A DNA stretch of 64,000 nt, from sequence record MT446416.1; one strand, written 5' to 3'. A program made the translations under genes and the position numbers. The notes below the pieces were generated by a model. That model did not search any database, had not been told where the DNA came from, and worked only from the letters and a program-made list of their open reading frames with translations. Shown here one piece after another: positions 35,940 to 63,712 of this stretch. Position 1 is the first letter of the stretch. Each line of letters starts with the position of its first letter. This stretch comes from Escherichia virus TH47.

Positions 35940-36500
35940 CTATCTTTTTGAATATTTTTTAATGTATCTCATAATCGCTGGCGGTGTAGTATTATACCTT
36001 TCAGCTAGTATAATTGAGTTAGCATCATGTGAATATGGTTTATACAGTTGTATAACTTCGTTAATCTCTTTTTCAGTTAGTTTTGTCCTAACATGCCTTA
36101 TACCTTCACTCTCATACTTCACTATTTTTTTAATAGGCGTTGCGTCGTCATGTATTCCGGTATCGTGTGCGTGTATTATGTTTTCCTTTCCGGTTGACCA
36201 TTCCAAATTACTGTAATGATTATTACTTTTATTTCTATCCTTATGATTAACCTGGACTTTCTTTCTTTTTGTTTTTTGTGCCCATTCTATTTGTGCAGGT
36301 GTCGGAGGGGGTAGATAGTTGGATGCAACCAATCTTTGAACATACTCAAAATGTTTTGATTTGTCTTCTCTTACAAGCGTTAATCTATGATACCCATCAG
36401 GGCGAATTGTTGGAGAAAGAATATTACTACCATAACGCCTAACATCCCCATACTCACTAATTTCATAAAGGGGATTCTCTTTTAATTGTTTCCATTCCAT
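35940..36500 (-). CDS. HNH-family homing endonuclease
   Basis: N-terminal YEISEYGDVRR...GYHRLTL and LEW-like pattern typical of phage HNH homing endonucleases. Confidence 0.65.
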   Translation of the reverse strand: MEWKQLKENPLYEISEYGDVRRYGSNILSPTIRPDGYHRLTLVREDKSKHFEYVQRLVASNYLPPPTPAQIEWAQKTKRKKVQVNHKDRNKSNNHYSNLEWSTGKENIIHAHDTGIHDDATPIKKIVKYESEGIRHVRTKLTEKEINEVIQLYKPYSHDANSIILAERYNTTPPAIMRYIKKYSKR

Positions 36501-36581
36501 TGATTTGATCCTTTTAGTTTCTCCTTTGTATTATATCACACAAAAACAAAAAAAGCCCACTGTTTAAGGTGGGCTAGTGAT

Positions 36582-36881
36582 TTATAAACAGTTAATTACT
36601 CCTGTGTGCGTTACTTTCTCAGTATCCATTACAGTGACCGAACCGCGTTTAGTACTGGCATCATAATAAATTGTTGTGCTACCTTTCGCATCTTCTTCAT
36701 GGAACGGGCCGTTTTTAAATGCTTCTGGCTGGATCTCTAGATCCTTTAAAACAATATCGCCAGTTCTTTCTTCGGTCATTGCAACAGTGCACTGAATGAA
36801 TTTTTCACTACTTACATCTAACGACGCATTAACAGCGAAAGAGGAAACAGATAAAGCCAGGGAGATGATTGCTACTTTCAT
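36582..36881 (-). CDS. small secreted/periplasmic protein (signal peptide)
   Basis: start MKVAIISLALSVSSFAVNA; hydrophobic core + AxA-like site. Confidence 0.5.
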   Translation of the reverse strand: MKVAIISLALSVSSFAVNASLDVSSEKFIQCTVAMTEERTGDIVLKDLEIQPEAFKNGPFHEEDAKGSTTIYYDASTKRGSVTVMDTEKVTHTGVINCL

Positions 36882-37122
36882 TTGATTATCCTTAGTTACC
36901 AGGGGAACCGTTCCCCCTATGTAAAACATTATACGCGTTTAAAAACTATTATCAAGTACTTTAATATAAAAGTATTTGAAAAATAATTGTTGACAACTGC
37001 ATCCAGTACTGGCATAATACCTACATAAAGACAAAACAGTCTCCAACCCACCGGGTGCATAGATCCGTCTATTAAATGATTCAGTACTGCAAAATAAAGG
37101 GGATCAATTGATCCCCTCTGTA

Positions 37123-37344
37123 TTACTTAGTAAGGTATAAACAGAAGTCACCTTTATTTGCTACGCCGCCAGTGTAACGCGATGAATAGTTAGAAATATC
37201 TTGTACTTCTGCTATTACCAGTGTATCATCATTCATTTCGTCGCAGAAGCAAACGGCTGGATCTTTTACGCCGATATTGTCGGCATGTTCCCGCATAGAT
37301 TTAACCAGTGCTTCCAGTTGAGAAAGAGTAGTGATATTAGCCAT
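37123..37344 (-). CDS. hypothetical small protein
   Basis: start MANITTLSQLEAL at 37342-37344. Confidence 0.45.
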   Translation of the reverse strand: MANITTLSQLEALVKSMREHADNIGVKDPAVCFCDEMNDDTLVIAEVQDISNYSSRYTGGVANKGDFCLYLTK

Positions 37345-37534
37345 TGTATTTTCCTCATTACCAGGGAGAACCATTTCTCCCCTCTATGTAAACTATTATA
37401 CAGTACTGGAAACTAATTGCAAGTACTTAATGGTAAGATCCGCAACGGTTGCAGTAGTTTTATTTGTTCGATCATGATGCTTACTCCTGGTTAAAGGCGG
37501 GAACCATTCCCCGCCATTGTCACAGTACTGAATA

Positions 37535-37774
37535 TTACATTCCAACCATTGCAGCACGGATCGCAGTAGTGCTATACTTGAATCCGTCCGGCGTTGTAGT
37601 AGTACCGTTGGCTTTTAATCTGCGGTACATACATTCCGCTGCAATATCTTTCGTTTTACTTTGAGCGATGCAATTTTGAGCAATCCGGTACAATGATTCA
37701 TCGTTATTGATCCAAAGGCTTACATTCCAATGAGTTTTGTTTTTGTGTCCGTTGTAAGTTTTAGTACTAGCCAT
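37535..37774 (-). CDS. hypothetical protein (paralog of 39563-39790)
   Basis: shared NGHKN-HWNVSLWINNDESLY...AAMVGM. Confidence 0.5.
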   Translation of the reverse strand: MASTKTYNGHKNKTHWNVSLWINNDESLYRIAQNCIAQSKTKDIAAECMYRRLKANGTTTTPDGFKYSTTAIRAAMVGM

Positions 37775-37863
37775 TTTTTAATCCTCTTATATAGTGGGGA
37801 ACTATTCCCCACCTGATGTAAAGTATTATACGCTTTTAAACTTAGTTTGCAAGTACTTTTTAA

Positions 37864-38475
37864 TTAATATGCGATTGATTCTACTACGCCATCAATAACA
37901 TTGAATTGATATTCGTTACCCTCAATCAGTGCCGTAATGTTTTCAGTAGTGAATTGATCCTTATATGCATTCTCTAAATCACGGTAAAACTTGCGTGACA
38001 ATTCACGAATAGTATCAGTTAGTAGTTTCTCAAGCTCATTAACTAACGTTTCTTGTTTTGAGGTTAAATCAGTGTAAGCCGATTCAATGTACCCGCTTAC
38101 AGTGTTCTCATGCGAGTAATGGGAGTGAGATCGCTTTACACTCATCGCCAAATCATCTTCATTCAGCAGGTGACGGATTGAGCGATACTTAGTTAATGCT
38201 CTTACCTTGCGTAAAAACTTCACTGCGTCAACGTGGTCAGTACTGATTGATGCACCGTCACCCTGGGACCAAAAACCACTGAATTGTATTTCAGCGTCAT
38301 TAATGCCATATTCTGGTAGTACTGTTTCTTTATAGTATTCAATTTCACTTTCAGAAAAATAATCGTCGTTTGTGTTTTTTTCACGTTCCCGAACCAGTTC
38401 GATAGCTGACGTTTTTTGTTCTGCGTTCAATTCAGAAAAATCCATAACATAAGTAGTAGTAGTGATAGTTTTCAT
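37864..38475 (-). CDS. hypothetical protein
   Basis: 203 aa; GAGGG RBS. Confidence 0.55.
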   Translation of the reverse strand: MKTITTTTYVMDFSELNAEQKTSAIELVREREKNTNDDYFSESEIEYYKETVLPEYGINDAEIQFSGFWSQGDGASISTDHVDAVKFLRKVRALTKYRSIRHLLNEDDLAMSVKRSHSHYSHENTVSGYIESAYTDLTSKQETLVNELEKLLTDTIRELSRKFYRDLENAYKDQFTTENITALIEGNEYQFNVIDGVVESIAY

Positions 38476-38899
38476 TTTGTAACCCTCATTCAGTAGTTGA
38501 TGTAAGTATTATACGCTTTTAAAAACAATTGTCAAACTATTTTATCAGGGGAGTTTTTCGTATGCCTTACTCCTGGGCTACTCAACGGGGAGTTACTTAT
38601 TTCGTTCCCCGTCCTGATGTAATACATTATACGCCGTTAAACATAGTATGCAAGTACTTTTTAAAATAGTTTTCAGTACTGAATAGTAAAAAGGTATTGA
38701 CAGCACTATCCAGTACTGGCATAATATACCCCATGACAACAGCTAACCCACCGGGTGCACAATTGTAACTGTACTAAACTACTTTTTCTATAGATACACT
38801 CCCGCACCCCGTGGGCCAAATTGTTCGTTTCAATAGATACATTATGCCAGTACTGACAAAATAAGTCAATACTGGCAATTGTAAAGATTTGTAAACTAC

Positions 38900-39130
38900 T
38901 TATACTGCAATCGCGTCCAGGCTATAATAATAATAAGTGCCGTATTGGTGTACTTTATTACCTTTTATTTCAGTACTGAATGAATCCGAACGATTAGCAT
39001 ATGATGTTAATTTAAAGTACTTTGCTTTACTAATACGTTGCCATACACCGCAGATCCGCTGTAAGTAAGTAGTTTTATTAGTGGTAGTATCTTTTACGGT
39101 TTTAACTTCGGTCATATACATATTAGCCAT
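38900..39130 (-). CDS. hypothetical protein
   Basis: start MANMYMTEV at 39128-39130. Confidence 0.45.
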   Translation of the reverse strand: MANMYMTEVKTVKDTTTNKTTYLQRICGVWQRISKAKYFKLTSYANRSDSFSTEIKGNKVHQYGTYYYYSLDAIAV

Positions 39131-39217
39131 TTTTTTAATCCTCTTATGTAGTGGGGAAGTATTCCCCATCTGATATAAAGTATTATACGCTTTTAAACTT
39201 AGTATGCAAGTACTTTT

Positions 39218-39481
39218 TTATAGTACTGCAATCTTTTTAGTACGGTACACGGTAACGCGATTGCCCTTGCGGTCGTGCTTTATTTCTACTACTCGCCGCG
39301 ATACACTATCAGGACTTTTTAACGCCGCCAACCAGTACTGTAAAGATCTGGCTTTACTTTGCTTTACTACCGCCCAACGTTTACCACGTTCCGATTGTCC
39401 GCCCATATCTTTAAACGTCGCCCCGTCCAGACGTGCGGCGATCCGTGCTTGTTCACGCGTCACAAAGTACATAATATTCAT
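39218..39481 (-). CDS. hypothetical protein (paralog of 27305-27700)
   Basis: 87 aa. Confidence 0.5.
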   Translation of the reverse strand: MNIMYFVTREQARIAARLDGATFKDMGGQSERGKRWAVVKQSKARSLQYWLAALKSPDSVSRRVVEIKHDRKGNRVTVYRTKKIAVL

Positions 39482-39562
39482 GCTGTTACCCCATCGTTGA
39501 CGTATAAAAGAAATCTATTATAAAGTACTATCACCGTGCAATAGTACTTTAAATATATTCTA

Positions 39563-39790
39563 TTACATTCCAACCATCGCCGCACGCACGCTTGATTTGC
39601 TATAACGTGCCCCATCAGGCGTGTGAGTACCTAAAAGGCGTAACATCCGCTCAACCGCTTTATCTCGCGTGTTGGTGCTTTTAATACTTTCCAGGGCCAA
39701 TTGGTACAGTGATTCATCGTTATTGATCCAAAGGCTTACATTCCAATGGTTGTAGTTTTTATGGCCGTTGAAAGTTTTAGTAGTAGTCAT
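39563..39790 (-). CDS. hypothetical protein (paralog of 37535-37774)
   Basis: 75 aa. Confidence 0.5.
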   Translation of the reverse strand: MTTTKTFNGHKNYNHWNVSLWINNDESLYQLALESIKSTNTRDKAVERMLRLLGTHTPDGARYSKSSVRAAMVGM

Positions 39791-39883
39791 TTTTAATTCC
39801 TCTTAAGTGCAGCGGGAACCATTCCCGCTCTCGATGTAATACATTATACGCTATTTGATAGTACTGTCAAACTAATTTTTAAC

Positions 39884-40246
39884 TTATTCGTAAATTTTGC
39901 CACTGTCAGCCCATACCAGGAAACGAGGCATATTATCCCATGCATCTTGTTTTAAATTTAAACCGTGTAATACTTCTGTACTTTCCATTCCTGGTACTGG
40001 TTTACTATACACCGCGAACATTTCACCCATATACTGATAAGCCATCGTTAAATCACTGGCGATCATCTTATGGATCATCGCATCAAGCATCACGGTAGCG
40101 GCGTATTGTTCACGCTTAAGCGGCAACATTGCAATAAGTCCACGATAAGCTGAAATGTGAATTTTTACCGTTTCTGCCGGAAGATCTTTCATCTCGTCGC
40201 GGAAGTTAACCAGGTTAGCAATAATTTTATTGATTTGTGTCGCCAT
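39884..40246 (-). CDS. hypothetical protein (first gene downstream of the 2-kb control region)
   Basis: 120 aa; preceded by TTGCAT-N16-TATAAT and stem-loop. Confidence 0.55.
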   Translation of the reverse strand: MATQINKIIANLVNFRDEMKDLPAETVKIHISAYRGLIAMLPLKREQYAATVMLDAMIHKMIASDLTMAYQYMGEMFAVYSKPVPGMESTEVLHGLNLKQDAWDNMPRFLVWADSGKIYE

Positions 40247-40380
40247 CGTTTTTAATCTCTCTTAAAGTGCAGCGGGAACCATTCCCGCTCTCGATGTAAT
40301 ACATTATACGCCGTTAAACATAGTATGCAAGTACTTTCTACAAATACTTTTAAAATAGTTTTCTTTCTATATAGGGGAAC

Positions 40381-40436
40381 TATCTTTCAGTACTATCTTT
40401 CAGTACTATCATTCAGTACTATCATTCAGTACTGAA
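40381..40436. repeat. four tandem 12-13-bp repeats (TTCAGTACTATCWT)
   Basis: ctttcagtactat x2, cattcagtactat x2 read directly. Confidence 0.7.
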
Positions 40437-40596
40437 TCAATCCACTAAATCATCCCTATACCCCGTAAAACGGCCTCAGACGCATTCTAACGCATTAATA
40501 CACCTAAGCTATACATTTGCACCATTCCAATCATTCCAGGGCTTTACGGGCCGTTGAAACGCGTTAAATTATTTTCAATTATTTTGTTTTTAGGTA

Positions 40597-40624
40597 TTGA
40601 CTTGATCCTGAAAAAGCGTATAAT
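40597..40624 (+). promoter_or_regulatory. plus-strand sigma70-like promoter TTGACT-16-TATAAT
   Basis: -35 40597-40602, -10 40619-40624; no convincing ORF downstream. Confidence 0.5.
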
Positions 40625-40937
40625 TACTACATAAGCCGGACACAAGGCACTAACCCACAGGGTGCGGAATTACGCCCAAAATTCAAGATATAAAAAAAGG
40701 ATACACTCCCGCACCCTAGCAGGTCAACGCACTTTCTCAGTACTGAAATATAGTACCATAGTACTTGCCAGGATAGCAAGCAAATTAATTAAAACTTTTT
40801 TGCTTCCAGGGTATTGCTTTATTTTTTCAGTACTGTATAATAGTTTCATCAAGTCGAGAAAGACTCAAGCCCACCGGGTGCATAGTTACGCCCAAAATTC
40901 AGTACTGAAAAAATTTTTAAAATATCTGTCCAGGCCG

Positions 40938-40966
40938 TTGACATTGCCCCCAGTTTATAAGATAAT
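40938..40966 (+). promoter_or_regulatory. plus-strand sigma70-like promoter TTGACA-17-GATAAT
   Basis: -35 40938-40943, -10 40961-40966; followed by palindromic GGGGAAnnnTCCCC hairpins and iteron-like repeats. Confidence 0.5.
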
Positions 40967-41060
40967 GATTCCAGATTCAGAAAAATCTAACTCCAGATAC
41001 TGCGGGGAAACTATCCCCACGCGGTAGGGGAACTATTGGAAAAAACAAAATAAAATTTTG

Positions 41061-41175
41061 ATTTAGCCGTCTATACTTCCAGACGTGTAACCATCTAGCC
41101 GTTTAGCCGTCCAAACGTCTAGCCATCCAGCCATCCAGAAATCTAGCCGTTTAGCCGTCTAGATGGATAGCCATC
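41061..41175. repeat. iteron-like direct repeats (TAGCCGT / TAGCCAT / CCAGCCAT)
   Basis: at least 8 copies of 7-8-bp units within ~115 bp, locally GC-richer. Confidence 0.6.
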
Positions 41176-42109
41176 TTTACTTCCATACTTCTGGAGGTCT
41201 AGACATATCTACGTCCAAAATCCACCCAGGGTTACTACACCCAAAATCCGTCAGTACTATACCATAGATCTATCTTTTGAAAGGGAGTATTCAGTACTGC
41301 CATCATAGCCCTCACTATGTTACCCTAGGAGGATGAAGACTATCATGTAGTACTGAATACTGTTAGAGGGAATCCACCAGCTTGTGCTGGTGGCATAATG
41401 CTTTAGATTAAAATCAGTACTGACACCATTCTGTTAATATCAGTACTGTTATTACGATTTTCATATGAGGTTCAAAAAGATGTACCACCACAGGAGGAAC
41501 TATCTTTTCTGTACTGTCTCACGACAGGAGGTAGAGTAAATGAATTGTTCGCAGCAACTCATCTCTCTATGTAGAACATTATACAGTACTGAATCATAAT
41601 GTCAATAACTTTCTTTCACCATTCAGTACTGATATTCTTGAGAACTACCCGTCTACAAACATCATTATATCCCACAAATCATAAACGTCCCAACGTAAAT
41701 TTCAACTTTCGAAGATCCAACTTTTATTTCATAGGTACTCCAAAATTTTTAGGATCGAGATTTAGGATGGAGTACTAACCAACTTTTTGCTGGAGCCTCA
41801 AGGGGTAATTGAATTTTACCCCGAAGGGTAAAAGGGTAATTGAAATTAAGGTGAAAGTAATAATTCAGTACTAATCATTGCGTGATTACTTTTGATTACA
41901 TTTGATGTAATTTGCAAAATGGAAAAGGAGCTTGGAAACTAAAAAGTACGGTAGACTTCCTCTGCCTACTTAGTGGGATATCGACACCTTCAGTACTGAA
42001 TACTTTTGGGGCAGTACTGCTACGTTCTTGATTAAACGTGCACATTCCTGTACTCTATTACACTCTAGTACTCACTACTGATCAGTACTGATCACTACAG
42101 TGATTATAA

Positions 42110-42157
42110 ATGATTACTTAAATGTTTATATATGATTACTTATGATTACTTATGACA
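42110..42157. repeat. tandem ATGATTACTT repeats
   Basis: three to four copies read directly. Confidence 0.6.
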
Positions 42158-42312
42158 AAGAGAAGCCAAAAGCTTCTCTGTAGAGTTACGGGGTTTAGCC
42201 TGGAGAGAATCCTAGTGATCGCATTTGTCCAGGCTGAATTTTAACAATTCGCCTGTACATAAAGGTTGTTCACTAGGAGCTTCCCCAGTCTCTATGTGCT
42301 CTATATGTTGAA

Positions 42313-47577: not shown

Positions 47578-47585
47578 TAATAGGT

Positions 47586-47615
47586 CAGTACTGAAATATG
47601 TACTGGTATTTTTTG
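47586..47615 (+). terminator. intrinsic terminator hairpin + T-run
   Basis: CAGTAC-N8-GTACTG followed by TTTTTTG. Confidence 0.55.
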
Positions 47616-47654
47616 TAAATACTATATAATTATTTTAATTTTGGAGATTTAATC

Positions 47655-48824: not shown

Positions 48825-48830
48825 AAAGAA

Positions 48831-48861: not shown

Positions 48862-48868
48862 GTATTAA

Positions 48869-48884: not shown

Positions 48885-48897
48885 AAAGGAGGGAATT

Positions 48898-50050: not shown

Positions 50051-50085
50051 GATTAAATATAGTATAAAGAATAAAGGAGGGAATT

Positions 50086-51243: not shown

Positions 51244-51255
51244 GAGAGAATAATT

Positions 51256-52416: not shown

Positions 52417-52422
52417 AATAAT

Positions 52423-52450
52423 GCCAGTACTCTGTACTGGTATTCTTATT
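52423..52450 (+). terminator. intrinsic terminator hairpin
   Basis: GCCAGTAC-TCT-GTACTGG followed by T-rich tract. Confidence 0.5.
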
Positions 52451-52486
52451 TGTATTAAATATAGTATAATGAATAAAGGAGGAATT

Positions 52487-53623: not shown

Positions 53624-53629
53624 TATAAT

Positions 53630-53659
53630 GCCAGTACTTGAGTACTGGCTTTTCTTTTA
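53630..53659. terminator. bidirectional hairpin terminator between convergent genes
   Basis: GCCAGTACTTGAGTACTGGC + TTTTCTTTT. Confidence 0.55.
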
Positions 53660-54307
53660 CATATTATATAATGTGAATGCAGTCACTTTACCAGTTGTTG
53701 TTAGTTCATTATAAAGATACTCCAAGATTCTCGCACACTCTAAGTATATCTCGATATCATCATGAATAAGTGAGTACTGGAATAGCTGTTCTTCAGATAA
53801 TTTGTATTGACTCCCTCTTAATGAATTGAGAATATCTTTCACATCATCAAGTACTGGGTAAAGTACGAAATCTTCATCATATTTTGAAGCAATAAATTCA
53901 AATCCACCACCATCAGTACTAGATATACCAATCAGTACTTTATCAATCAAGTTAATGTTTATATAACGGTTGTGATTTGGGTGAATTGAAATCTCAAACA
54001 TACGAGTACTGTTACAATCAACATCAATATACAAATATACATCATTGAATTTATAAGTTAAGCAACCATACTCAATGTAATCAGAGCAAATAATTGATGA
54101 ATTTTTTCTCGTCTCTGCGTAATGCATATTGATATTCTTTTTACGCATAAGTAATTCGAACTTTGCACTAAACTTACCACCAGTAAGATAATTAGTATTA
54201 GGACGTTTGTAACTGGCAACTGGCCTATGGGATGATGAAAAGTATCTTTTTGTGAATCGTTTCTGTTTAGTGAAATATTCTTGATAGAACTTATTTCTTT
54301 TATTCAT
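53657..54307 (-). CDS. hypothetical protein, paralog of 44068-44739, with FamA C-terminal module
   Basis: motif SEEQLFQYSLIHDDIEIY; start MNKRNKFYQEYF at 54305-54307 after GAGG. Confidence 0.5.
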   Translation of the reverse strand: MNKRNKFYQEYFTKQKRFTKRYFSSSHRPVASYKRPNTNYLTGGKFSAKFELLMRKKNINMHYAETRKNSSIICSDYIEYGCLTYKFNDVYLYIDVDCNSTRMFEISIHPNHNRYININLIDKVLIGISSTDGGGFEFIASKYDEDFVLYPVLDDVKDILNSLRGSQYKLSEEQLFQYSLIHDDIEIYLECARILEYLYNELTTTGKVTAFTLYNM

Positions 54308-54385
54308 GAGTGCCTCAATTAAATTGCTGTAAAATTGTACGTTATAAAATGAGTAAATAAAGTATAACACAAGGAGATTTTTATT

Positions 54386-55510
54386 ATGTTACCTTTCGTA
54401 TTGTTATTTGATTATGGGAACGAAAAACAAGAAAGTTCTTATGATGTTAGTGTATATGGAAACAATAACTACATTTTAAATAAACAAACTGGAAACCTTT
54501 TTGCATCTGGTGCTGCGGCATTTATGGGTGATAACACCGTTAAGTATTATATTACCCAAATCGAATCAAATGTTCATAGCTGTGAGATAGGCTTCCTATC
54601 ATCATGGATAATTAAGAAGGACAAAACTGTTTTCATTTTAGGAAACAAAAGTTCAATTGGTCTAACCGATTCGACCACATCATGGTTTGAAATTACAAAT
54701 TTATTTTCTGCTGTTCCTGAAATATGGGACAACCTATTTGAATGTAAAGTTCAATTGGGATATAACTGCATACGTGTTATGACACCACTAGGTTCAATCT
54801 ATGCGATTGGCACAAACACTTATGGTGCATTGGGTACTGGTACTACATCCTCATCAACTTCGTTCGTTAAAAGTGGTGCTGTGGATGCTGTACGCATGGA
54901 ATCAACTGAACGTTCAGTTTTCTATCAAAACAGTTCTGGAAAATGGTTTGGATGTGGTGATAACACATATGGTATACTAGGTCTAGGAACTACCGCCAGT
55001 CGTGTAAACTCATACACCGCACCAGTATGGACTAATGCAGAAGCTGTTAGCTTCTCTAACCGTGGTATCATATACAGCCTCAATGGTACTCTATACTCAT
55101 GTGGTGACAAAGTTAATGGTCAGCTAGGGGATGGATATACACAAAGCATAGACGCTGCCAGGAGCACACCATACACCATAGGAACCGCATTCCAAATTGG
55201 TAAGGCAATAACATCAGCTACACAAGCATCAGCCAACGTATTCATTGGTAAAGATAATAAGTTCTATGGTACTGGTAGTATTGCTGCTGGTATAAATGGT
55301 AGTGCTAGTGCTACATTAAGTAAAGTTACTGCGTTATCAGCATCACTACCACCTGACATTACATACAATGATATTATAACATTTAATACAGGGACCGTAA
55401 CTTTTATTCAAGCAAAAGGACAACTATATTATGTTGGTAGAAGAACTTACATAGATAATAGTTCAGACGTTACCACACAGTTCAGTTTAATTGGTGGCTT
55501 AGATAATTAA
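54386..55510 (+). CDS. RCC1-like repeat protein, FamD copy 7 (most divergent)
   Basis: N-term MLPFVLLFDYGN; GTNTYGALGTGT, GDNTYGILGLGT, GDKVNGQLGDGY. Confidence 0.8.
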   Translation: MLPFVLLFDYGNEKQESSYDVSVYGNNNYILNKQTGNLFASGAAAFMGDNTVKYYITQIESNVHSCEIGFLSSWIIKKDKTVFILGNKSSIGLTDSTTSWFEITNLFSAVPEIWDNLFECKVQLGYNCIRVMTPLGSIYAIGTNTYGALGTGTTSSSTSFVKSGAVDAVRMESTERSVFYQNSSGKWFGCGDNTYGILGLGTTASRVNSYTAPVWTNAEAVSFSNRGIIYSLNGTLYSCGDKVNGQLGDGYTQSIDAARSTPYTIGTAFQIGKAITSATQASANVFIGKDNKFYGTGSIAAGINGSASATLSKVTALSASLPPDITYNDIITFNTGTVTFIQAKGQLYYVGRRTYIDNSSDVTTQFSLIGGLDN

Positions 55511-55515: not shown

Positions 55516-55547
55516 ATCCAGTACTATAATAGTACTGGATTTTTTAT
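55516..55547. terminator. bidirectional hairpin terminator
   Basis: ATCCAGTACTATAATAGTACTGGAT + TTTTTT between convergent genes. Confidence 0.6.
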
Positions 55548-55918
55548 TATAACATACGTTTTTTACGAATAGTATTGTGGATATTTTTTAAGTAGTTCAC
55601 ACCTTTACACAACCCATAAAATACACCAGCACATACACCAAATACAGGTATCATACATGCAAACATCGTTATCAATTCCCACATCTCCATGCCATCTTGA
55701 TTCGGTCCAAGGTCAAAGATAACAACCGAAACCAAACCTGTGATACTTAGCATATAATATGCCATGAAGATAAAAAAAGAAACAATACCAACATCAGAGC
55801 GAACTGAATTTAGCATATTATATACTGGGGTTACACAGAAGTAATACAATAACCAAACCAAAGAGCCTAAACTAAACACAATAATAGTAATGATCGAAAA
55901 TATTTCACGATAACTCAT
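55547..55918 (-). CDS. FamE small multi-TM membrane protein
   Basis: 123 aa, several hydrophobic helices; last of seven tandem paralogs. Confidence 0.6.
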   Translation of the reverse strand: MSYREIFSIITIIVFSLGSLVWLLYYFCVTPVYNMLNSVRSDVGIVSFFIFMAYYMLSITGLVSVVIFDLGPNQDGMEMWELITMFACMIPVFGVCAGVFYGLCKGVNYLKNIHNTIRKKRML

Positions 55919-55919
55919 T

Positions 55920-56282
55920 TTAGTTCCTCTTACCTAAACGCTCATGGATTTCGGAAATCTTATTATACATCCACGCCATCAACTCAACGGATGCACAGAG
56001 AATAACCACACACAGTGTTAGTGAACATACCATAATACCAAATGTTATAAAATTCAAACTCGATGTTAATAATGCAACCAGCATTAGAATAAAACCAAAA
56101 TTGAATGCTGTACTCAACACAGTATATGCTGGACTATATCTCCTTTGTATTACATCATATATATTTGATAATGGTCGCTTATGGAAGTACTTCCCAATGC
56201 ACACGAATGCATTCAGTGAGAAGATAAATGTATACGCCATTACCATTAATTGACCAATAAAAGATAATTCAATATTATTCAT
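55920..56282 (-). CDS. FamE small membrane protein
   Basis: 120 aa, hydrophobic. Confidence 0.6.
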   Translation of the reverse strand: MNNIELSFIGQLMVMAYTFIFSLNAFVCIGKYFHKRPLSNIYDVIQRRYSPAYTVLSTAFNFGFILMLVALLTSSLNFITFGIMVCSLTLCVVILCASVELMAWMYNKISEIHERLGKRN

Positions 56283-56283
56283 G

Positions 56284-56655
56284 TTATCCTCGTTTGCGGT
56301 ATTTGATGCTTTGGTGCATTCTCTGAAAATGTGGAACTAATACATATTGTACGGTTTGCCAAATTACCATCAGATTATGGACAGCACCACCGAGTAGACC
56401 AAACATTAGACAGATAATTACCAGTACTGGATCACCATCTACCATACCCCATTTGAATATATGTAAAATCCATACAGTGATAAGTAGTAATAAACTAATC
56501 CAATACGTAGTAAAAAATCCCGCATGTAATTCATAATCATCAGCAATTTCATCGTATACGGTTTCCAAGAAGGATACACAGAAGAACTTGCCAATAATAA
56601 CAATTGTACTAATAAACAACATAGCAGTTAATATAATAAGTGCAATTTCCATCAC
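56284..56655 (-). CDS. FamE small membrane protein
   Basis: 123 aa, hydrophobic. Confidence 0.6.
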   Translation of the reverse strand: MMEIALIILTAMLFISTIVIIGKFFCVSFLETVYDEIADDYELHAGFFTTYWISLLLLITVWILHIFKWGMVDGDPVLVIICLMFGLLGGAVHNLMVIWQTVQYVLVPHFQRMHQSIKYRKRG

Positions 56656-56966
56656 ATCCCTCGTTTACGCTTTTGATTGCGTCTAAATTCGGTTAGCCCA
56701 CGAATAATCGGTGGCATCAGACTACATAAAAAAATAACAGTTGTTGGCAATAACATGAAGTCAATCATTGCTGTATTAACAGGTGGATCACATACCAAAT
56801 AATACAAACACGTAATACTAATTATGGTTGACCCAATAAAAAGAATACAAAATTCTTTTATCTGTTTTTCAACATAATCAAACATCTTCAATACAAATAA
56901 AAATCCAACCCAACACATAATAAAATAGAATGAATACAACGTGTAAATCAATGTTACGATATCCAT
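56652..56966 (-). CDS. FamE small membrane protein
   Basis: 104 aa; ATGA overlap. Confidence 0.6.
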   Translation of the reverse strand: MDIVTLIYTLYSFYFIMCWVGFLFVLKMFDYVEKQIKEFCILFIGSTIISITCLYYLVCDPPVNTAMIDFMLLPTTVIFLCSLMPPIIRGLTEFRRNQKRKRGM

Positions 56967-57304
56967 TAGTACCTCGCATCAGGAACTTTAGAACGCAATT
57001 TATGAACGGCTGGGATCAACAACAAACTTACATATGCAATAGTTGAACCCCAATAGAATACTAATATAATTGGTTCACCATTAGAACGTAAACCTCTACT
57101 AATCATTGAGTAGTGAATAATAGGCATAAACATCGCCATAAAAAACCATGCGTGTAATTTTAATTGCAGCATGTTATCAGAGATGAATACTGAAATTGGT
57201 CGTTTAAAGAACCACATCAGAAAGTAGAACCCAGCACTAACAATATAGTACATAGTACTAACTTTCATATACCACGGCATTAAGTGTAAAAAATATTCCA
57301 TCAT
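56966..57304 (-). CDS. FamE small membrane protein
   Basis: 112 aa. Confidence 0.6.
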   Translation of the reverse strand: MMEYFLHLMPWYMKVSTMYYIVSAGFYFLMWFFKRPISVFISDNMLQLKLHAWFFMAMFMPIIHYSMISRGLRSNGEPIILVFYWGSTIAYVSLLLIPAVHKLRSKVPDARY

Positions 57305-57648
57305 TCCTCCGGTATCTTGTTTCGAAGTTCAATCATAACACAACAAAGTTTAATGAACAAGTAAAAAACTACACATATCATACCTATGGTTCCATAAACG
57401 ACTGAAAAAGCTGGTAGTGCTTTTCCGGCGAGAACAGCCACAACACATGCTATAAATGTTGATGCAAACAATGATTGATTAATGAAAGAATTCATAAAAT
57501 CTTCACCATTACGCTTATAGAATTGTCGTTTAAAATACCATCCTAGAAACATAACTACCCAAAATGTTACATAACCTGTTAGAATAATCCCTGCAATTGA
57601 ATGTGCAACAGAACTACTCTTTAAAAACTCAAGATAAGATTCAAACAT
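57301..57648 (-). CDS. FamE small membrane protein
   Basis: 115 aa; ATGA overlap. Confidence 0.6.
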   Translation of the reverse strand: MFESYLEFLKSSSVAHSIAGIILTGYVTFWVVMFLGWYFKRQFYKRNGEDFMNSFINQSLFASTFIACVVAVLAGKALPAFSVVYGTIGMICVVFYLFIKLCCVMIELRNKIPEE

Positions 57649-57986
57649 TAGAAGTCCCCACGAATTTTTGCTCTACCATTAATGATGAGATTAAACAAGT
57701 ATATCAGCACCCAAATTAGTAATCCAAGGAATACAATATATTGTGATATTGAGTTCAACTGTGGATTAGCACAATAAATTAAGTGTGCGATAAGACCAAC
57801 AATTGCAAACATACCTTGGATAATAGTGAAAAGAAGTAGTGAAATGTTTCCATCAGGATACAGTTTGAAAACGATTTTCTTTTTAAAATACCATAGTACT
57901 ACAACTAGTGCATGATAAAAGAAAAAACCAAACAGATAAATCAAAGTAATACTAAGCATTGTATCTGAATTAAAAAACTCAAGCAT
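57648..57986 (-). CDS. FamE small membrane protein
   Basis: 112 aa; first of seven. Confidence 0.6.
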   Translation of the reverse strand: MLEFFNSDTMLSITLIYLFGFFFYHALVVVLWYFKKKIVFKLYPDGNISLLLFTIIQGMFAIVGLIAHLIYCANPQLNSISQYIVFLGLLIWVLIYLFNLIINGRAKIRGDF

Positions 57987-58053: not shown

Positions 58054-58824
58054 TTAAATTTTCTCAAGGAACAAGTTTTCGCACTGCTCTTCCCAATCAT
58101 ACGGGTTGTTGTTGTATACTGCTGAAATCAACAGAGGCATACGCAGTGAAGGAGCACGAAGTGCATCTTCATGTTTCAGCATCCAATTCAGGATTGCTTT
58201 GCTACCATTACTATTAACACCTTTAGTTGACAGGATGTTGGTCTTGTTCATTACGTTTTCAATGTGAATCATGATATCGCTTTTAGTCTGGATCTGTAAG
58301 TCAACATACACAGAGCGAGACATAAGAGCAGCATAGTGAGCAGACATTTTGGTTTTAGCTTTAGCATTCAGTGCTAAATCTTTGTTAGTAATGAATACGA
58401 TACGACCGTTAAAATCAAAGCTGTTAGGGATACCGTTGGTAGTTAAGTACTTAGAGCTAGTCATGTAAGACACAGTACGTTTACCGCTGTCCAGTACTGC
58501 TTTGAGCAGGTTCATACCGTCTTCTGAATCAAAGATGCTGTCCATATCATCCAGTACTAATACGTTAGTGCTGTGACGATTCTTGTACAGAACTTCATAC
58601 AGAGCAAGAGTAGTCATCTTACCACTGATAGTAACTACGTTCCATTCTGCTGCGTCATGAGCTTTCTGGAGGCGTTGTGACAGGGTGTAAGTCTTACCAA
58701 CACCAGGTGCACCGCTGACAACCATACTTTTTACAGTACTGCTATCATCGAGCAAACACTCAAGAGCAACCATCATGGAGTTGAAGTTTTTCTGGATTTG
58801 AATGCTACGTGCTTCTCTGGTCAT
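58054..58824 (-). CDS. P-loop NTPase (AAA-type ATPase-like)
   Basis: Walker A VVSGAPGVGKTYT, Walker B-like VLVLDDMD. Confidence 0.65.
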   Translation of the reverse strand: MTREARSIQIQKNFNSMMVALECLLDDSSTVKSMVVSGAPGVGKTYTLSQRLQKAHDAAEWNVVTISGKMTTLALYEVLYKNRHSTNVLVLDDMDSIFDSEDGMNLLKAVLDSGKRTVSYMTSSKYLTTNGIPNSFDFNGRIVFITNKDLALNAKAKTKMSAHYAALMSRSVYVDLQIQTKSDIMIHIENVMNKTNILSTKGVNSNGSKAILNWMLKHEDALRAPSLRMPLLISAVYNNNPYDWEEQCENLFLEKI

Positions 58825-58865
58825 TTCGTTATCCTCATCAGTTGATGAAATAATTATAGCAAAAA

Positions 58866-58885
58866 GGGCTGACCGAAGTCAACCC
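58866..58885 (-). terminator. terminator-promoter cassette: UUCG-tetraloop hairpin + T-run with -35 (TTGAC) inside the stem and TGcTATAAT -10
   Basis: minus strand reads GGGTTGACTTCGGTCAGCCCTTTTTGCTATAAT; repeated at 60313-60331, 61118-61137, 61701-61719, 63286-63305, 33019-33040. Confidence 0.6.
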
Positions 58886-58895
58886 TTTTGTATTG

Positions 58896-60044
58896 TTATT
58901 TCTTGTCTAAGATTTGTACTTCACCATAAATCTGTACGATTTGCTTTTCTGGATTACCTTCGATAAGTTTTAGAAAAGATTTCAGTACTGCAACGTGGTC
59001 TTCATAGTATGCAATCCTAATGAAGTTGTAACCGTTGTTGATGGCGTACTCAGTTTTTATTGCGTCTTTTATCTTTCTTTGTTCAAAAGCACTTTTGCCG
59101 CCCCATAATTTGATTGATTGAAAATGTTGTACTCCATCATATTCCAGAAGGATTCGTTTACTTTCAATAAATCGATCAAAAGGTAATGGCTTTTTGAACT
59201 TACAATCAATGAAGCGTTTCTCTTTTATGGTATCATCTTCTAACATACCATCAATATCAACTAAATTCTTACTCTCACCTGATGAACAGGTAGGACATGA
59301 AGACTCAGATGATATATAGTTATGATATGATGGATAAAATGGGTTATTACAATCATTACACTGTAAATGTAATTTTGTTTTTGATGTTTCATAAACACCT
59401 CCCACAAATCCAATAAAGGTATTATTACAAACTGCGTTTCTTTTATCTATTTCATATTTGACTACTAGAATATTCAAACGAATCTTTTTTGCCGAGCTGT
59501 AATCACGACATTCAACACAATTATGACCATTAAGAAAATCATAAATGTTCTCACATAAACGAGTATGGTTGTTTTTACATTTGTACCAAAATTTAGATTT
59601 GAATTTTGTAGTAAATTCACCTTCAAATTTGATAAATGTAATAGATTCACGTTTACACTCTTTTTGTATTTCTTTTAATGCATCAGATTCAGATATTTTG
59701 ATAGTGTTTTGGTACTCTTTTCTTTTCTTCTTACCACATATCTGACATCCACCAGAGATAAGATAACTTTTCAGTGAACTTGTACATAAAGTGCTGCATG
59801 TTCCACATCTAAACAGAACTTTATTCTTTTCTAGTCCAAAAAATTGATTACTGTTTGATATCTGTAAGCCAAAAATAGTATCTTCTTTTTCAATGGCTTT
59901 TAGTTTAATTTCATCAATTCTAACGATAGTTTTTTTATTTTTTACAGGAACATTTTCTATTTTCATGTACTCAAATTTAGTACATAATTCTTCAATAATA
60001 TAAACTTTCTCACCATCTTCATTTAAATAGTACTTTTCAAACAT
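58896..60044 (-). CDS. zinc-ribbon repeat protein with C-terminal endonuclease-like domain (homing-endonuclease-like)
   Basis: three Cx2C...Cx2C repeats; C-terminal EYDGVQHF...IRIAY resembles PD-(D/E)xK / Vsr-like endonuclease. Confidence 0.5.
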   Translation of the reverse strand: MFEKYYLNEDGEKVYIIEELCTKFEYMKIENVPVKNKKTIVRIDEIKLKAIEKEDTIFGLQISNSNQFFGLEKNKVLFRCGTCSTLCTSSLKSYLISGGCQICGKKKRKEYQNTIKISESDALKEIQKECKRESITFIKFEGEFTTKFKSKFWYKCKNNHTRLCENIYDFLNGHNCVECRDYSSAKKIRLNILVVKYEIDKRNAVCNNTFIGFVGGVYETSKTKLHLQCNDCNNPFYPSYHNYISSESSCPTCSSGESKNLVDIDGMLEDDTIKEKRFIDCKFKKPLPFDRFIESKRILLEYDGVQHFQSIKLWGGKSAFEQRKIKDAIKTEYAINNGYNFIRIAYYEDHVAVLKSFLKLIEGNPEKQIVQIYGEVQILDKK

Positions 60045-60060
60045 TACTCAATACTCCTTT

Positions 60061-60273
60061 TCAGTACTGAACCCGTCCAGCACCATTAATCTTAGCCTGA
60101 ATCTTATCTTTTTCGACAAGACCTTCTTTGTAATCGATGGACGTATTATCGCACTGAATTACATCTAAGTCAAGTACTTCTTGTGTACTTAATGAAGTAT
60201 TGTCTGCAATTTGTTGTAAAGTAATGATATCAGTACCGAAGAATTCTGCTAAACGTATAAAAGATAATTTCAT
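60061..60273 (-). CDS. hypothetical small protein
   Basis: 70 aa; AAGAGG RBS. Confidence 0.45.
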   Translation of the reverse strand: MKLSFIRLAEFFGTDIITLQQIADNTSLSTQEVLDLDVIQCDNTSIDYKEGLVEKDKIQAKINGAGRVQY

Positions 60274-60325
60274 GTGTTACCTCTTAAGTTGATGAAATAA
60301 TTATAGCAAAAAGGGCCGACCGAAG

Positions 60326-60595
60326 TCAACCATGTTTGAAAGGATTTTTTAATGGTTTTAGTACTGTATGTATTCTGCTGTGTAGTTCTTCTTCCCACAA
60401 AACATTTACATTATAAACTAAATCATTGTAATCACTGTACTCAAATATAAAATCATACTTTTCATCAAAAGTATGAGAAATCAATTTCATTTTCATCAGT
60501 ACAATAGAACTTTTAAATTTATATGTTTCTTTTTCTTCTCCGGTTTTTGAGATTGGTATATTTTTTACAAATTCTTTGAATTCATCATCAGTCAT
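60326..60595 (-). CDS. hypothetical protein
   Basis: 89 aa. Confidence 0.4.
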   Translation of the reverse strand: MTDDEFKEFVKNIPISKTGEEKETYKFKSSIVLMKMKLISHTFDEKYDFIFEYSDYNDLVYNVNVLWEEELHSRIHTVLKPLKNPFKHG

Positions 60596-60613
60596 AGTTT
60601 AACCATATATTAT

Positions 60614-60835
60614 TTAACCAGTATTAGTCCCAATATAGTCACTCCATAAATTATATATATTGTTTTCAACACAATCATCATCGCTTAATTCTATCATTGA
60701 TGATATAAGTACTGATACGGTTTGTGTGTTCAAATCGGTATCGCGATGTTTCAACCACCATTTCAGGGTGAGGGTGAGTGTTCGTGCTGTGTTTGGATTA
60801 TTTGTAAATTTATATCTGGTGGTATCGAGAATCAT
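60614..60835 (-). CDS. hypothetical small protein
   Basis: 73 aa. Confidence 0.4.
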   Translation of the reverse strand: MILDTTRYKFTNNPNTARTLTLTLKWWLKHRDTDLNTQTVSVLISSMIELSDDDCVENNIYNLWSDYIGTNTG

Positions 60836-60883
60836 TTTAAATCTTCTTTCATTTAATTATATAAACAAAGTACTCATGTAATT

Positions 60884-61081
60884 TTAATTACTTTTGTATA
60901 TTGAATCACATTGTCTACTCAATAGTTTATAGTATGCTTTACCACGAGGAAATAGTTTACGTGTATGTTCTCCTTTTCCCCACGGTCCTAAATATGTTTT
61001 ACGCGTGTCATGATTATTAAAGTTCTTTGATACAGTTGATTTTGTACCAATAGGATCTTTCTTACTAAAATAGATAGACAT
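60884..61081 (-). CDS. hypothetical small protein
   Basis: 65 aa. Confidence 0.4.
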   Translation of the reverse strand: MSIYFSKKDPIGTKSTVSKNFNNHDTRKTYLGPWGKGEHTRKLFPRGKAYYKLLSRQCDSIYKSN

Positions 61082-61143
61082 TATAAAGTTTTCTCTTTAC
61101 TAAGTTTATGTATTAACGGACTGACCGAAGTCAACCCTTTCCT

Positions 61144-61659
61144 TTAATAATTATTCATTTCATCTTTGATTTGTTCTTCAATTTCGTCGAACATATCAGT
61201 ACTAGATTCTATATTACTACTTACGTCCTGCATATCTTTAACGTACTGTGGGCGTTCAACGTCAGTAAATTTATACCACTTAGGCTTCATCTGGAGCTTC
61301 TCAATCAAACGCTCACGAGACATTTTAATCTCTGACTCCGATGGTACGTAGTCATTACAAAACTCAGCAGGGAAGCCGCTAATGTCGTTTACTTCAGTGT
61401 TTTGAATCTTCATACCACGACGCAAACATTCATTAACAATATCAATATGACGCTTCTGTAAGTACAATAACTTGTTGTAGAAGAATGTTACATGACCTGA
61501 ACCTAACAGGTAAGTACTGTTAATTTTGAAATCACGGACTCGCTTACGTGCTTGAACATGTTTTTGTACAGCACCAAACACACGTGGGAGTTCACGATAT
61601 TCAGCCATCAGATGTTGGTCAGCAAGTTCTTTAACGTGTACTAAGTTAATGCGTGTCAT
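61144..61659 (-). CDS. denV: pyrimidine-dimer DNA glycosylase / endonuclease V
   Basis: [30 protein letters not shown]...KRVRDFKI...GHVTFFY closely matches phage T4 endonuclease V as recalled; longer C-terminal acidic tail. Confidence 0.85.
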
Positions 61660-61728
61660 GTATTCATCCTCTCGTTTCGATGAAATGATTATAGCAAAAA
61701 GGGCTGACCGAAGTCAACCTTTTTCTTA

Positions 61729-63243
61729 TTATTGTTTTACCCCGCCCCACTTTTCATAGATTGCAATAATCTTATACAAGTTTGTGATGTTAGTTGTTTC
61801 CGTGTAACCATCTTTCATTTCATTTTTGGTAAGTACACCTTTACCAAAAATCCTCTTACACTCCTGTTCTGCTGACCTACAACTTTTGGGAGTGCTGAAA
61901 TGATAATACAACATTGAAGAAACTTTATATATACATTTATTGTCTTGGTGCTTCTGGCGGCGACCATGAACCTTTTCAATTCCATATTTCAATGCAATAG
62001 GTAACTCACCATCATAGATCACATGAATGTATGCAAATTGTTGATTATGATTAGAACATTCGGGGCAACCGGAACCACCAAGGTGAGCATTTGGAGTTAT
62101 TTTGAACTCACCATGTTCGCTACATTCAACCTTAACTAATTTATGTGCATTCACATAATTCGTTTTAGGATATGTGTACTTCCCATTATGTACTTTAGAT
62201 GCCTTTTCAATAAATTCAGGTGTACTAGAACGTTCACATCCTGAACATTTAGAACAACCATTTTTTTCATGTAGATGGTGTGTTGGTTGCTGCGTGAACA
62301 CACCATGTTCTTTACAAACAATCGATACTTTAGTTTTTAAGTTTTTATATTTAACTAAAGAATAATCATATTTGTCTCCATGTATTTCATGTGCTTTTTT
62401 GATGAACGTTTCGGTAGTTAACGCCATCTTTCCACTACACTCTAAACAACCATTGCCAGCCACATGTTTACTGGCAAGTTGCTCAAAATCACCATGTTCT
62501 GGACATGTAATTATAACTTTTCCACGTCCATTTATATAGATAGTTTTATCATATGAATATTTGTCACCGTGAACTTCTTTACATTTTTTGATGAAATCCG
62601 GGGTGTCTTTATATCTATACGTACCACTACATTTAGCACATTTAAAACCACTTAGGTGGTTTGCTGGGGTTTGTTCAAAATCACCATGTTCTTTGCATGT
62701 TATTGTAACTTTGGTTTTTGAGTTGATGTACACAACTTTATCGTATGTGTACTCAAAATTATGTTTAACATTTGCCTTCATGATAAAGTGCTCATTCGTA
62801 GAAACTCTTCCCAAGTGTACAATTGAACCGTCTTTATTCATCTTAGTGCATAAATTACATCCACGTTTTTTTCTTAAATGATCACTAACTCTTTTCTCAA
62901 AATCACCATGTTCTGGACATGTTATAATTACTCTAGAAGAATTAGAAACATCATCTTGTACCTTATCATAAAGGTACACATCACCAAAAATAGCACGAGA
63001 CTGTTCGATGAATTTAGCTTTACCCTTTCGAAAGTGTAGTCCATTTTTTGTATATCTACATTTTTTGCAGCCAGATGACCGTAAATGAGTTCCAGCAATT
63101 TGTTCGAACTCACCATGTTCTGGACATGTAATAATCACTGAGGTTCTTGAATTAACATAAACCACTTTAGTATAATCGTACTTAAAATTATGCAATTTAT
63201 TCGCTTGTTTTACAAACTCTTCTTTATTCATTGCGACTGGCAT
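61729..63243 (-). CDS. multi-zinc-ribbon protein (6-7 tandem CxEHGxF...HL...GCxxC repeats), possible nuclease
   Basis: repeats ITCPEHGEFEQ...; C-terminal VIY-N9-YGI...RR loosely GIY-YIG-like (weak); start MPVAMNKEE with same upstream context as denV. Confidence 0.5.
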   Translation of the reverse strand: MPVAMNKEEFVKQANKLHNFKYDYTKVVYVNSRTSVIITCPEHGEFEQIAGTHLRSSGCKKCRYTKNGLHFRKGKAKFIEQSRAIFGDVYLYDKVQDDVSNSSRVIITCPEHGDFEKRVSDHLRKKRGCNLCTKMNKDGSIVHLGRVSTNEHFIMKANVKHNFEYTYDKVVYINSKTKVTITCKEHGDFEQTPANHLSGFKCAKCSGTYRYKDTPDFIKKCKEVHGDKYSYDKTIYINGRGKVIITCPEHGDFEQLASKHVAGNGCLECSGKMALTTETFIKKAHEIHGDKYDYSLVKYKNLKTKVSIVCKEHGVFTQQPTHHLHEKNGCSKCSGCERSSTPEFIEKASKVHNGKYTYPKTNYVNAHKLVKVECSEHGEFKITPNAHLGGSGCPECSNHNQQFAYIHVIYDGELPIALKYGIEKVHGRRQKHQDNKCIYKVSSMLYYHFSTPKSCRSAEQECKRIFGKGVLTKNEMKDGYTETTNITNLYKIIAIYEKWGGVKQ

Positions 63244-63298
63244 TGTATTCATCCTCTCGTCTTGATGAAATAATTATAGCAAAAAGGGCTGACCGAAG

Positions 63299-63712
63299 TC
63301 AACCCTTTTTTCTTTCAATCAAACATAGTCTACCAGAATGTACCATGCGATGGTGATTAGAACAAAGAATCATACACTTTCGAATTTCATCTTTGATAGA
63401 TTCTCGACTTTTACTGAACATAGAACTTGGTGTATGTTCTTTGGTATTAGGATCAAGATGGTGAAAGTCTAAACATTCTGGATACTTCATCATACAAATA
63501 CTACAACCATAAAATGATTTAACTCTGGTCATGAAATCTTTATTTTTTCTTTTGATTTCTTCAAGTTTTTTGACCTCAGTTTTTTTATTTCTGGTTTTCT
63601 TACTGGTAATATTTCTACAATCGTTGCATGTATTTCTATGTTTCCCAGTATCACTTCTTATACCAAATTCACTAATGTTTTTTTCAATATTACATGTAAT
63701 ACACTTCTTCAT
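63299..63712 (-). CDS. HNH endonuclease
   Basis: Cys pairs plus DFHHLDPNTKEH...CSNHHRMVH HNH motif. Confidence 0.65.
   Translation of the reverse strand: MKKCITCNIEKNISEFGIRSDTGKHRNTCNDCRNITSKKTRNKKTEVKKLEEIKRKNKDFMTRVKSFYGCSICMMKYPECLDFHHLDPNTKEHTPSSMFSKSRESIKDEIRKCMILCSNHHRMVHSGRLCLIERKKG

Follow-up and report, generated by a model that had tools for sequence, protein, structure and literature searches.

What are the nuclease-like genes that lie among the accessory genes of Escherichia virus TH47, and how do they come to sit where they do? The question is raised by a 64,000-nucleotide (nt) stretch of record MT446416.1, referred to here as the window, for which an initial annotation had proposed several homing-endonuclease-type genes marking recombination hot spots of the kind typical of T4-type phages. 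We find that the window probably holds four intact, free-standing homing-endonuclease-type genes that derive from three nuclease superfamilies and reside in recombination hot spots. DNA searches return as the closest genomes those of Asteriusvirus, jumbo coliphages of ~350 kilobases (kb; 121Q, PBECO4, slurp01, EC.P1, WPEC3 and others), which match at 88-97% identity with a coverage of just 40-85%, because the region is a mosaic. TH47 is an Asteriusvirus, i.e., a Rak2-like jumbo phage of the 121Q/PBECO4 group, and not T4-type in the strict sense; of the original framing, the hot spots are borne out by the variable slots described below, while the phage type is not. Rak2-like phages do have T4-type replication and recombination genes in common, including homologues of UvsX and gp46/47 (PMC5259590). 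The window is a portion of the early, hyperplastic region of this jumbo coliphage, where the neighbours of the four nuclease genes are short open reading frames (ORFs) of unassigned function and almost all genes between 35940 and 63712 lie on the minus strand.

Four nuclease genes from three superfamilies

The four ORFs proposed initially are all present, and all are encoded on the minus strand (lengths in amino acids, aa):

35940-36500, minus strand: HNH-1, a free-standing I-HmuI-like gene, 186 aa, with NUMOD4, HNH_3 and a C-terminal helical region
63299-63712, minus strand: HNH-2, a probable zinc-finger HNH endonuclease gene, 137 aa
58896-60044, minus strand: 382-aa nuclease gene, with an N-terminal 'MFEKYYLNEDGEKVY' module, three CapR/DUF4379-type zinc ribbons (about 59286-59807, minus strand) and a Vsr-like PD-(D/E)XK domain in the C-terminal 124 aa (58899-59270, minus strand)
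61729-63243, minus strand: 504-aa nuclease gene, with six tandem DUF723/CapR/DUF4379 zinc-ribbon repeats (about 62044-63234, minus strand) and a C-terminal T5orf172-like GIY-YIG-fold domain (61732-62070, minus strand)

Domains were called from searches of Pfam with per-family bit cutoffs and of PHROG, PDB, PADLOC and NCBIfam. HNH-1 passes the Pfam cutoffs for NUMOD4 (27.4 bits, cutoff 23.4, residues 1-42) and HNH_3 (30.4 bits, cutoff 24.8), matches phrog_59 'HNH endonuclease' (2.4e-29) and PADLOC 'HEase' (2.3e-16), and aligns across residues 1-116 with the homing endonuclease I-HmuI (PDB 1u3e, E = 9.5e-9), in an alignment that retains the catalytic motif VNHKD..NN..NLEW..KEN. It carries both a beta-beta-alpha-Me HNH motif, with the catalytic His and the conserved Asn, and a NUMOD4 DNA-binding module. 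The protein is a singleton when clustered at 90% identity, and the closest homologue that the phage collection offers shares 38.5% identity with it. HNH-2 matches phrog_2255 'HNH endonuclease' (7e-32) and displays a readable motif, CSIC...FHHLDP...LCSNHHRMVH, with the pattern CxxC...HH...N...HH...H. No Pfam family exceeds its threshold for this protein, the HNH_2 model being spanned at positions 1-64 of 66 with a score of 14.6 bits (E = 0.03), below the cutoff of 21. A homologue is found in 284 phage records, for which HNH is the usual annotation; in 16 the identity is ≥80%, and the cluster of HNH-2 at 90% identity has 35 members. The earlier assignment of both genes as HNH endonucleases is upheld for HNH-1 by HNH_3 and 1u3e, and is probable for HNH-2 from phrog_2255 and the visible motif.

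The 382-aa protein contains three zinc-knuckle pairs (aa 80, 156 and 229) and passes the Pfam DUF4379 cutoff (26.2 bits, cutoff 24.5), while a 73%-identical homologue passes the CapR model. Its C-terminal 124 aa are predicted to adopt a restriction-endonuclease-like, Vsr-like PD-(D/E)XK fold, with further likenesses to Hjc, VRR-NUC, TnsA and restriction enzymes. D32, E43, D45, H49, D69 and K72 of this domain are invariant among 29 homologues; E43, D45, H49 and D69 form a candidate E, D, H, D motif, putative counterparts of Vsr D51/H69/D97. The endonuclease-like C-terminus noted initially in a zinc-ribbon protein is identified as Vsr-like, next to DUF4379. Database entries for its Vsr-like homologues are often labelled 'HNH endonuclease'. 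The exact 382-aa protein occurs on 13 contigs, and in all five that were displayed it lies directly downstream of a 70-aa ORF; in these five the ATPase gene follows where the contig is long enough, and the neighbouring slot Y (see below) is empty or holds a 304-aa allele.

The 504-aa gene has a mechanical ORF start at 63252; the ATG at 63243, however, is correctly spaced from a GAGAGG ribosome-binding site, and the start coordinate given initially is therefore right. Six zinc-ribbon repeats of ~64-74 aa have their motif, C-x-EHG-x-F...H...C-x2-C, at aa 43, 112, 186, 250, 313 and 377 (507-aa frame) and share invariant F, Y, Y, V, C, E, H, G, F, H, C and C residues. Seven had been counted before, but a search of this protein for a seventh found none, and the six motifs are spaced such that no further one would fit. 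The repeats score above the Pfam cutoffs for DUF4379, DUF723 and Zn_ribbon_HMPTM, which places them among zinc fingers. Describing this gene product as a zinc-ribbon protein was correct as far as it went, and overlooked the C-terminal nuclease domain, for which a GIY-YIG fold is predicted. The domain's own sequence gives no T5orf172 or MUG113 Pfam match even at E = 5; among 37 aligned sequences, nine match T5orf172 (best 1.2e-4) and six match MUG113 (best 3.1e-5), and Y14/K28/G30/R38/E68/E91 are conserved in the homologue alignment.

The two zinc-ribbon proteins had been thought to contain the same unusual repeat. This is true at the level of the family, in that both pass Pfam DUF4379 and match phrog_559/681; the two proteins have no BLASTP similarity, and their repeat profiles compare at E = 2.6e-4 with a probability of 42%. 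As judged by sequence, they have a repeat family in common, not a repeat.

Domain searches had been named at the outset as the test that might overturn this picture. They place a nuclease domain in 4/4 proteins (HNH twice, Vsr-like PD-(D/E)XK, and a predicted T5orf172/GIY-YIG fold), and none was reassigned to a family of another kind. NCBIfam gives no match for any of the four; PADLOC matches HNH-1 alone, gives nothing for the other three and backs no defence system. BLASTP within the window reveals no further paralogues of the four proteins, and PDB sequence searches with the two zinc-ribbon proteins and profiles of their homologues return nothing useful for the nuclease domains. A word-indexed search with the 110-aa C-terminal domain gives one match; an exhaustive HMMER search is needed here. 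Rfam and tRNA scans of the whole window are empty, and there is therefore no sign in it of group I introns or tRNA-linked insertion.

Precise polymorphisms and two variable slots around denV

Comparison with relatives that lack the inserts, the check suggested initially, reveals clean presence/absence polymorphisms in intergenic slots between genes of unknown function. The inserts and the gene that separates the two slots are:

35968-36542: HNH-1 insert, 575 base pairs (bp), missing from slurp01 and 121Q
63320-63723: HNH-2 insert, 404 bp, missing from 121Q and PBECO4, flanked by a 66-nt repeat and by the stop codon of an 89-aa gene upstream
58889-61114: insert A relative to EC.P1, a 2226-bp composite of the 382-aa gene and four small ORFs (60061-60273, 60326-60595, 60614-60835 and 60884-61081)
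61728-63243: insert B relative to EC.P1, a 1516-bp gene-plus-repeat cassette with the 504-aa gene, between direct repeat copies 3 and 4
61144-61659, minus strand: denV (T4 endonuclease V, pyrimidine-dimer glycosylase; Pfam Pyr_excise 9e-15, phrog_1183 5.5e-59)

The HNH-1 insert occupies precisely the space between the upstream gene's terminator and the -35 box of the promoter that follows, with flanks that match the related sequence L004 on both sides (window 34711-35967 to L004 2667-3925; window 36543-36963 to L004 3936-4371). The final nine codons of the ORF extend into host sequence beyond the insert, and the insert is covered by none of 36 related phage records. The HNH-2 insert is bounded in the same fashion by matches to L007 (window 63244-63319 to 3838-3762; window 63724-64000 to 3771-3495). 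The gene is present in ~16 records, and two retain just its last 28 aa (phages E9.1 and WPEC5; records PP886230.1, 320820-320903, and PV654397.1, 52656-52739). These 28 codons, at ~90% identity, are apparent leftovers of a lost copy.

Inserts A and B flank denV, a conserved gene between two variable slots, X and Y, in the order ATPase - X - denV - Y - next gene. Insert A is a mosaic of pieces that it shares with different relatives, including 121Q gp220 (95%) and WPEC3 CDS124/126 (81-90%); two of its four small ORFs match PHROG families of unknown function alone, and two match none. Its junctions (window up to 58888 matching L002 up to 5889; window from 61115 matching L002 from 5864) overlap by 26 bp, which is the hairpin of the repeat described below. 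The junctions of insert B (window 61115-61727 to L002 5864-6478; window 63244-64000 to L002 6408-7166) overlap by 71 bp, again inside the repeat, and the two copies that flank this insert are 94% identical. The slot of insert B is empty in L014 and holds the 304-aa allele in L015. The contents of the two slots in named relatives are as follows:

EC.P1: X empty; Y, HNH
WPEC3: X, 516-aa endonuclease; Y, HNH
121Q: X, 487-aa endonuclease; Y empty
PBECO4: X, 379-aa endonuclease; Y empty
ph0011: X empty; Y, Dam methylase, three ORFs and HNH

The cargo differs in nearly every relative examined, which justifies the term recombination hot spot. Module swapping between nuclease genes is evident from two alleles: PBECO4 gp306 joins the N-terminal module of the 382-aa protein to a T5orf172 C-terminus, and the 304-aa allele of L015 has the nuclease domain of the 504-aa protein behind three cysteine-less repeats.

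Two further observations concern these slots. The repeat-array alleles L001 5247-6797 (WPEC3 CDS125) and L015 3207-4121 have repeats that lack all four zinc-binding cysteines (..IIDPxxGEF....FL.G.GHP.R) and retain the repeat scaffold and a T5orf172-type domain. The ATPase gene next to X (58054-58824) is 99% identical to that of EC.P1, 91% to that of 121Q and 68% to that of WPEC3 (L001 4001-4949), while the far side of the slot in WPEC3 (denV, HNH-2) is 96-97% identical; this pattern suggests that an allele of the ATPase gene was replaced next to a nuclease slot.

A promoter-plus-hairpin repeat at the cassette borders

The junctions of inserts A and B fall in a 66-nt repeat with the following copies:

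58824-58889, minus strand: copy 1, leading into the ATG of the ATPase gene
60271-60336, minus strand: copy 2, preceding the 70-aa ORF that lies ahead of the 382-aa gene
61659-61724, minus strand: copy 3, upstream of denV
63244-63309, minus strand: copy 4, ending at the ATG of the 504-aa gene
61115-61144, minus strand: hairpin-only remnant directly after the denV stop codon, at the right junction of insert A

Read along the coding strand, a full element consists of a hairpin, GGGTTGAC-TTCG-GTCAGCCC, and a T-run, followed by a ribosome-binding site and an ATG. A promoter is predicted within it, with the -35 box TTGACT inside the stem, 18 nt, and then TGcTATAAT. The window contains six matches to the repeat, compared with 0.01 expected by chance, and its copies are the four best promoter-like sites within the 9-kb region scanned. 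Copy 1 scores 11/12 in the promoter scan with an extended -10 element and has a predicted RNA fold of -23 kcal/mol (z = -5.4); clearly stable hairpin folds are obtained for three of the four full copies. The same 30-mer lies at the cassette borders of 121Q, PBECO4, EC.P1 and WPEC3, and in IMG/VR it is found only in contigs of 348-366 kb.

This element resembles the promoter-early stem-loop (PeSL) cassettes described for the T4-type phages RB49 and phi1 (PMC2839356, PMC4122927). Like a PeSL, it is intergenic and combines a predicted sigma-70-like promoter, a G+C-rich stem-loop over the -35 box, a ribosome-binding site and a start codon; it flanks genes of unknown function, and indel junctions lie within it. 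PeSLs reside in T4-like phages (Tevenvirinae), whereas the genomes closest to the window are Asteriusvirus; the TH47 element is also unrelated in sequence to the PeSLs of RB49, and its cargo includes nuclease genes.

A second class of promoter/hairpin repeat is found at window positions 24300-40350, where 16 copies of 63-91 nt separate most of the small ORFs, each with a -35 TTGCAT, a -10 TATAAT and a GGGGAA..TTCCCC hairpin followed by a ribosome-binding site. Four more copies, of a type with the hairpin in the -35 box, are found at 24914, 26018, 28742 and 32999.

Homing, cassette exchange and other explanations

We infer from these features how the four genes might have spread, an account in which cleavage, the sites targeted, homing as such and the direction in which each event ran are all presumed. 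Each gene appears to fuse a DNA-binding module to a nuclease domain, in four combinations: NUMOD4 with HNH; a zinc finger with HNH; three zinc ribbons with a Vsr-like PD-(D/E)XK domain; and six zinc ribbons with a T5orf172/GIY-YIG fold. When the phage infects a cell together with a relative that has no copy of the gene, the enzyme would cut or nick the empty allele near the slot, and recombination-dependent repair by the phage would fill the break with a copy of the nuclease gene and of some DNA from its flanks. The 66-nt repeats around denV would supply both homology for exchange and transcription signals, and whole cassettes could therefore be gained, lost and swapped with the neighbours undamaged.

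Several observations weigh against this account. HNH-2 and both C-terminal nuclease domains fall below the Pfam threshold with their own sequence, and their assignment comes from PHROGs, homologues and predicted folds. The T5orf172 proteins of vibriophage ICP1 lack the canonical GIY-YIG motif (Netter et al., PMC8096241), and activity is therefore not guaranteed. A gradient of co-conversion in the flanks is not seen in the little flanking sequence available. Finally, because the junctions of the two zinc-ribbon genes lie in a repeated element, recombination between repeats could explain their movement with no nuclease at all; for the junctions of inserts A and B, plain homologous recombination is an equally good explanation.

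This last point leads to the strongest rival, in which cassette shuffling by repeat recombination moves the two zinc-ribbon genes, and perhaps HNH-2, with the nucleases as passengers or as domesticated proteins. Domesticated roles could include transcription control, as for CapR, or attack on co-infecting phages or satellites, as for ICP1 Odn. The position of both sets of junctions inside the repeat, with insert B between direct copies that are 94% identical, speaks for shuffling, and the slots of relatives also take non-nuclease cargo (the Dam methylase and small unknown ORFs). Excision mediated by PeSLs, with formation of mini-circles, has been demonstrated experimentally (PMC2839356), and CapR is a domesticated relative that binds a -35 promoter element (PMC8096241). 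We nonetheless regard shuffling as the sole process as rather unlikely: HNH-1 and HNH-2 are single-gene indels that have no repeat copies on both sides, slot X or Y holds nuclease genes in almost every relative examined, and the catalytic-type residues are invariant among homologues.

The CapR relative binds a -35 element, and the -35 box here lies within the hairpin stem. The zinc-ribbon nucleases might recognise the promoter/hairpin repeat itself, which would make the locus a site of nuclease-assisted, integron-like cassette exchange in jumbo phages. If so, nicking or cutting there would turn every repeat into a potential landing pad, and the zinc-ribbon nucleases would be the 'helper protein' speculated for PeSLs by Arbiol et al. 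We view this as a long shot.

That the genes are decaying relics, i.e., inactive remnants of past invasions retained as neutral DNA, is very improbable. The HNH-2 remnants in E9.1 and WPEC5 and the loss of all zinc ligands from some repeat-array alleles speak for it. Against it, all four ORFs in TH47 are full-length, each has a predicted promoter and/or ribosome-binding site, the motif residues are intact, the exact 382-aa protein is found on 13 contigs, and the HNH-2 cluster has 35 members. A partnership of the AAA-type ATPase with the adjacent 382-aa nuclease in defence or counter-defence is suggested by the adjacency of the genes and by weak ATPase matches to STAND/AAA families, and is scarcely credible given that PADLOC is blank for the three nuclease proteins besides HNH-1 and marginal for the ATPase, that EC.P1 and ph0011 keep the ATPase without an adjacent nuclease, and that between the two genes lies a repeat that has features of a terminator and a promoter; an ATPase-nuclease operon was rejected on the same grounds, namely the solitary ATPase of EC.P1/ph0011 and the want of PADLOC support.

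Relation to known systems

HNH-1 shares with I-HmuI of Bacillus phage SPO1 an N-terminal NUMOD4-type module and the catalytic H...N...N motif; I-HmuI is intron-encoded, whereas HNH-1 is free-standing between a terminator and a promoter. The T4 Seg and Mob genes, GIY-YIG and HNH nucleases, respectively, are free-standing and associated with localized gene conversion. The TH47 genes likewise stand between other genes and vary among close relatives. To our knowledge, enzymes that combine zinc ribbons with a Vsr-like domain do not occur in T4, and T4 itself is without T5orf172-type nucleases (PMC10448857).

T5orf172 homing nucleases carry repeated CapR/DUF723/DUF4379 zinc fingers, and such nuclease genes lie at exchange boundaries (PMC10448857, PMC8096241). 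In architecture, with 'beads on a string' zinc fingers ahead of a putative T5orf172-type domain at the C-terminus, the 504-aa protein corresponds to ICP1 Gp121/130/165/174 and T5 Orf141 (PMC8096241, PMC10448857), and the changes in repeat number and the domain swapping seen in those genes are evident here too. It differs in residing in a jumbo Asteriusvirus, in a nuclease domain too divergent for a direct Pfam T5orf172 match, and in adjoining an accessory repair gene, not an essential gene. EDxHD enzymes are a Vsr-like homing endonuclease family (I-Bth0305I, PDB 3r3p, and phage Hef enzymes; PMC3239194) whose fold is the one predicted for the 382-aa C-terminal domain; with Vsr/DUF559 they are the closest known counterparts of that protein. 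Neither the NUMOD/helix-turn-helix N-terminus nor the intron or intein location of those enzymes is found for the 382-aa gene, which encodes three zinc ribbons for DNA binding and stands by itself, with a small ORF on one side and the ATPase gene on the other. The pairing of a zinc-ribbon array with a Vsr-like domain is not discussed, as far as we found, in the literature cited here.

Other features of the window

From 18 to 42 kb, the GC content climbs to 0.36-0.40 from 0.32. Positions 18000-24000 are occupied by diverged tandem repeats, in several families with a spacing of 200-450 bp, which suggest an array of small paralogous genes. An ORF-poor segment at 40250-42310 contains an 8-bp-period tandem array, TAGCCGTC, in ~12 copies (41064-41162), a 13-bp array repeated four times (40379-40433) and AT-rich 10-bp arrays (42052-42155), together with the minimum of the cumulative GC skew and a sign change in AT skew; one relative has 'Direct Terminal Repeats' annotated nearby, and the segment may be an origin or genome-end region. 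On the plus strand, 46456-55510 holds eight tandem paralogous genes (369-416 aa), and for the two of these that were scanned (46456-47577 and 54386-55510) the products are beta-propeller proteins of the RCC1-like type (Pfam RCC1/WD40_RLD; phrog_4219). On the minus strand, 55547-57986 comprises seven back-to-back small ORFs (104-123 aa) for hydrophobic, membrane-protein-like products, apparent paralogues; the array is kept in relatives with varying copy number, one extra being found in 121Q and ph0011.

Significance

All three enzyme architectures and the cassette principle are already published, and the TH47 genes are further members of known homing-endonuclease families, a well-documented yet ordinary case of selfish nuclease genes that does not overturn current understanding. 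What is new is the host lineage, the presence of three nuclease superfamilies in two adjacent slots, and a PeSL-like element outside T4-like phages. The analysis corrects the annotation of Vsr-like enzymes, which are frequently mislabelled as HNH endonucleases, and it flags the likeliest sites of gene exchange in therapeutic jumbo coliphages; the modular zinc-ribbon arrays might also serve as programmable DNA binders. For the Asteriusvirus/Rak2-like group, these findings extend both the idea of promoter/hairpin cassettes and that of nucleases at exchange boundaries, with the denV locus a compact natural example in which two intergenic slots are contested by three nuclease superfamilies whose DNA-binding and catalytic modules are interchangeable.

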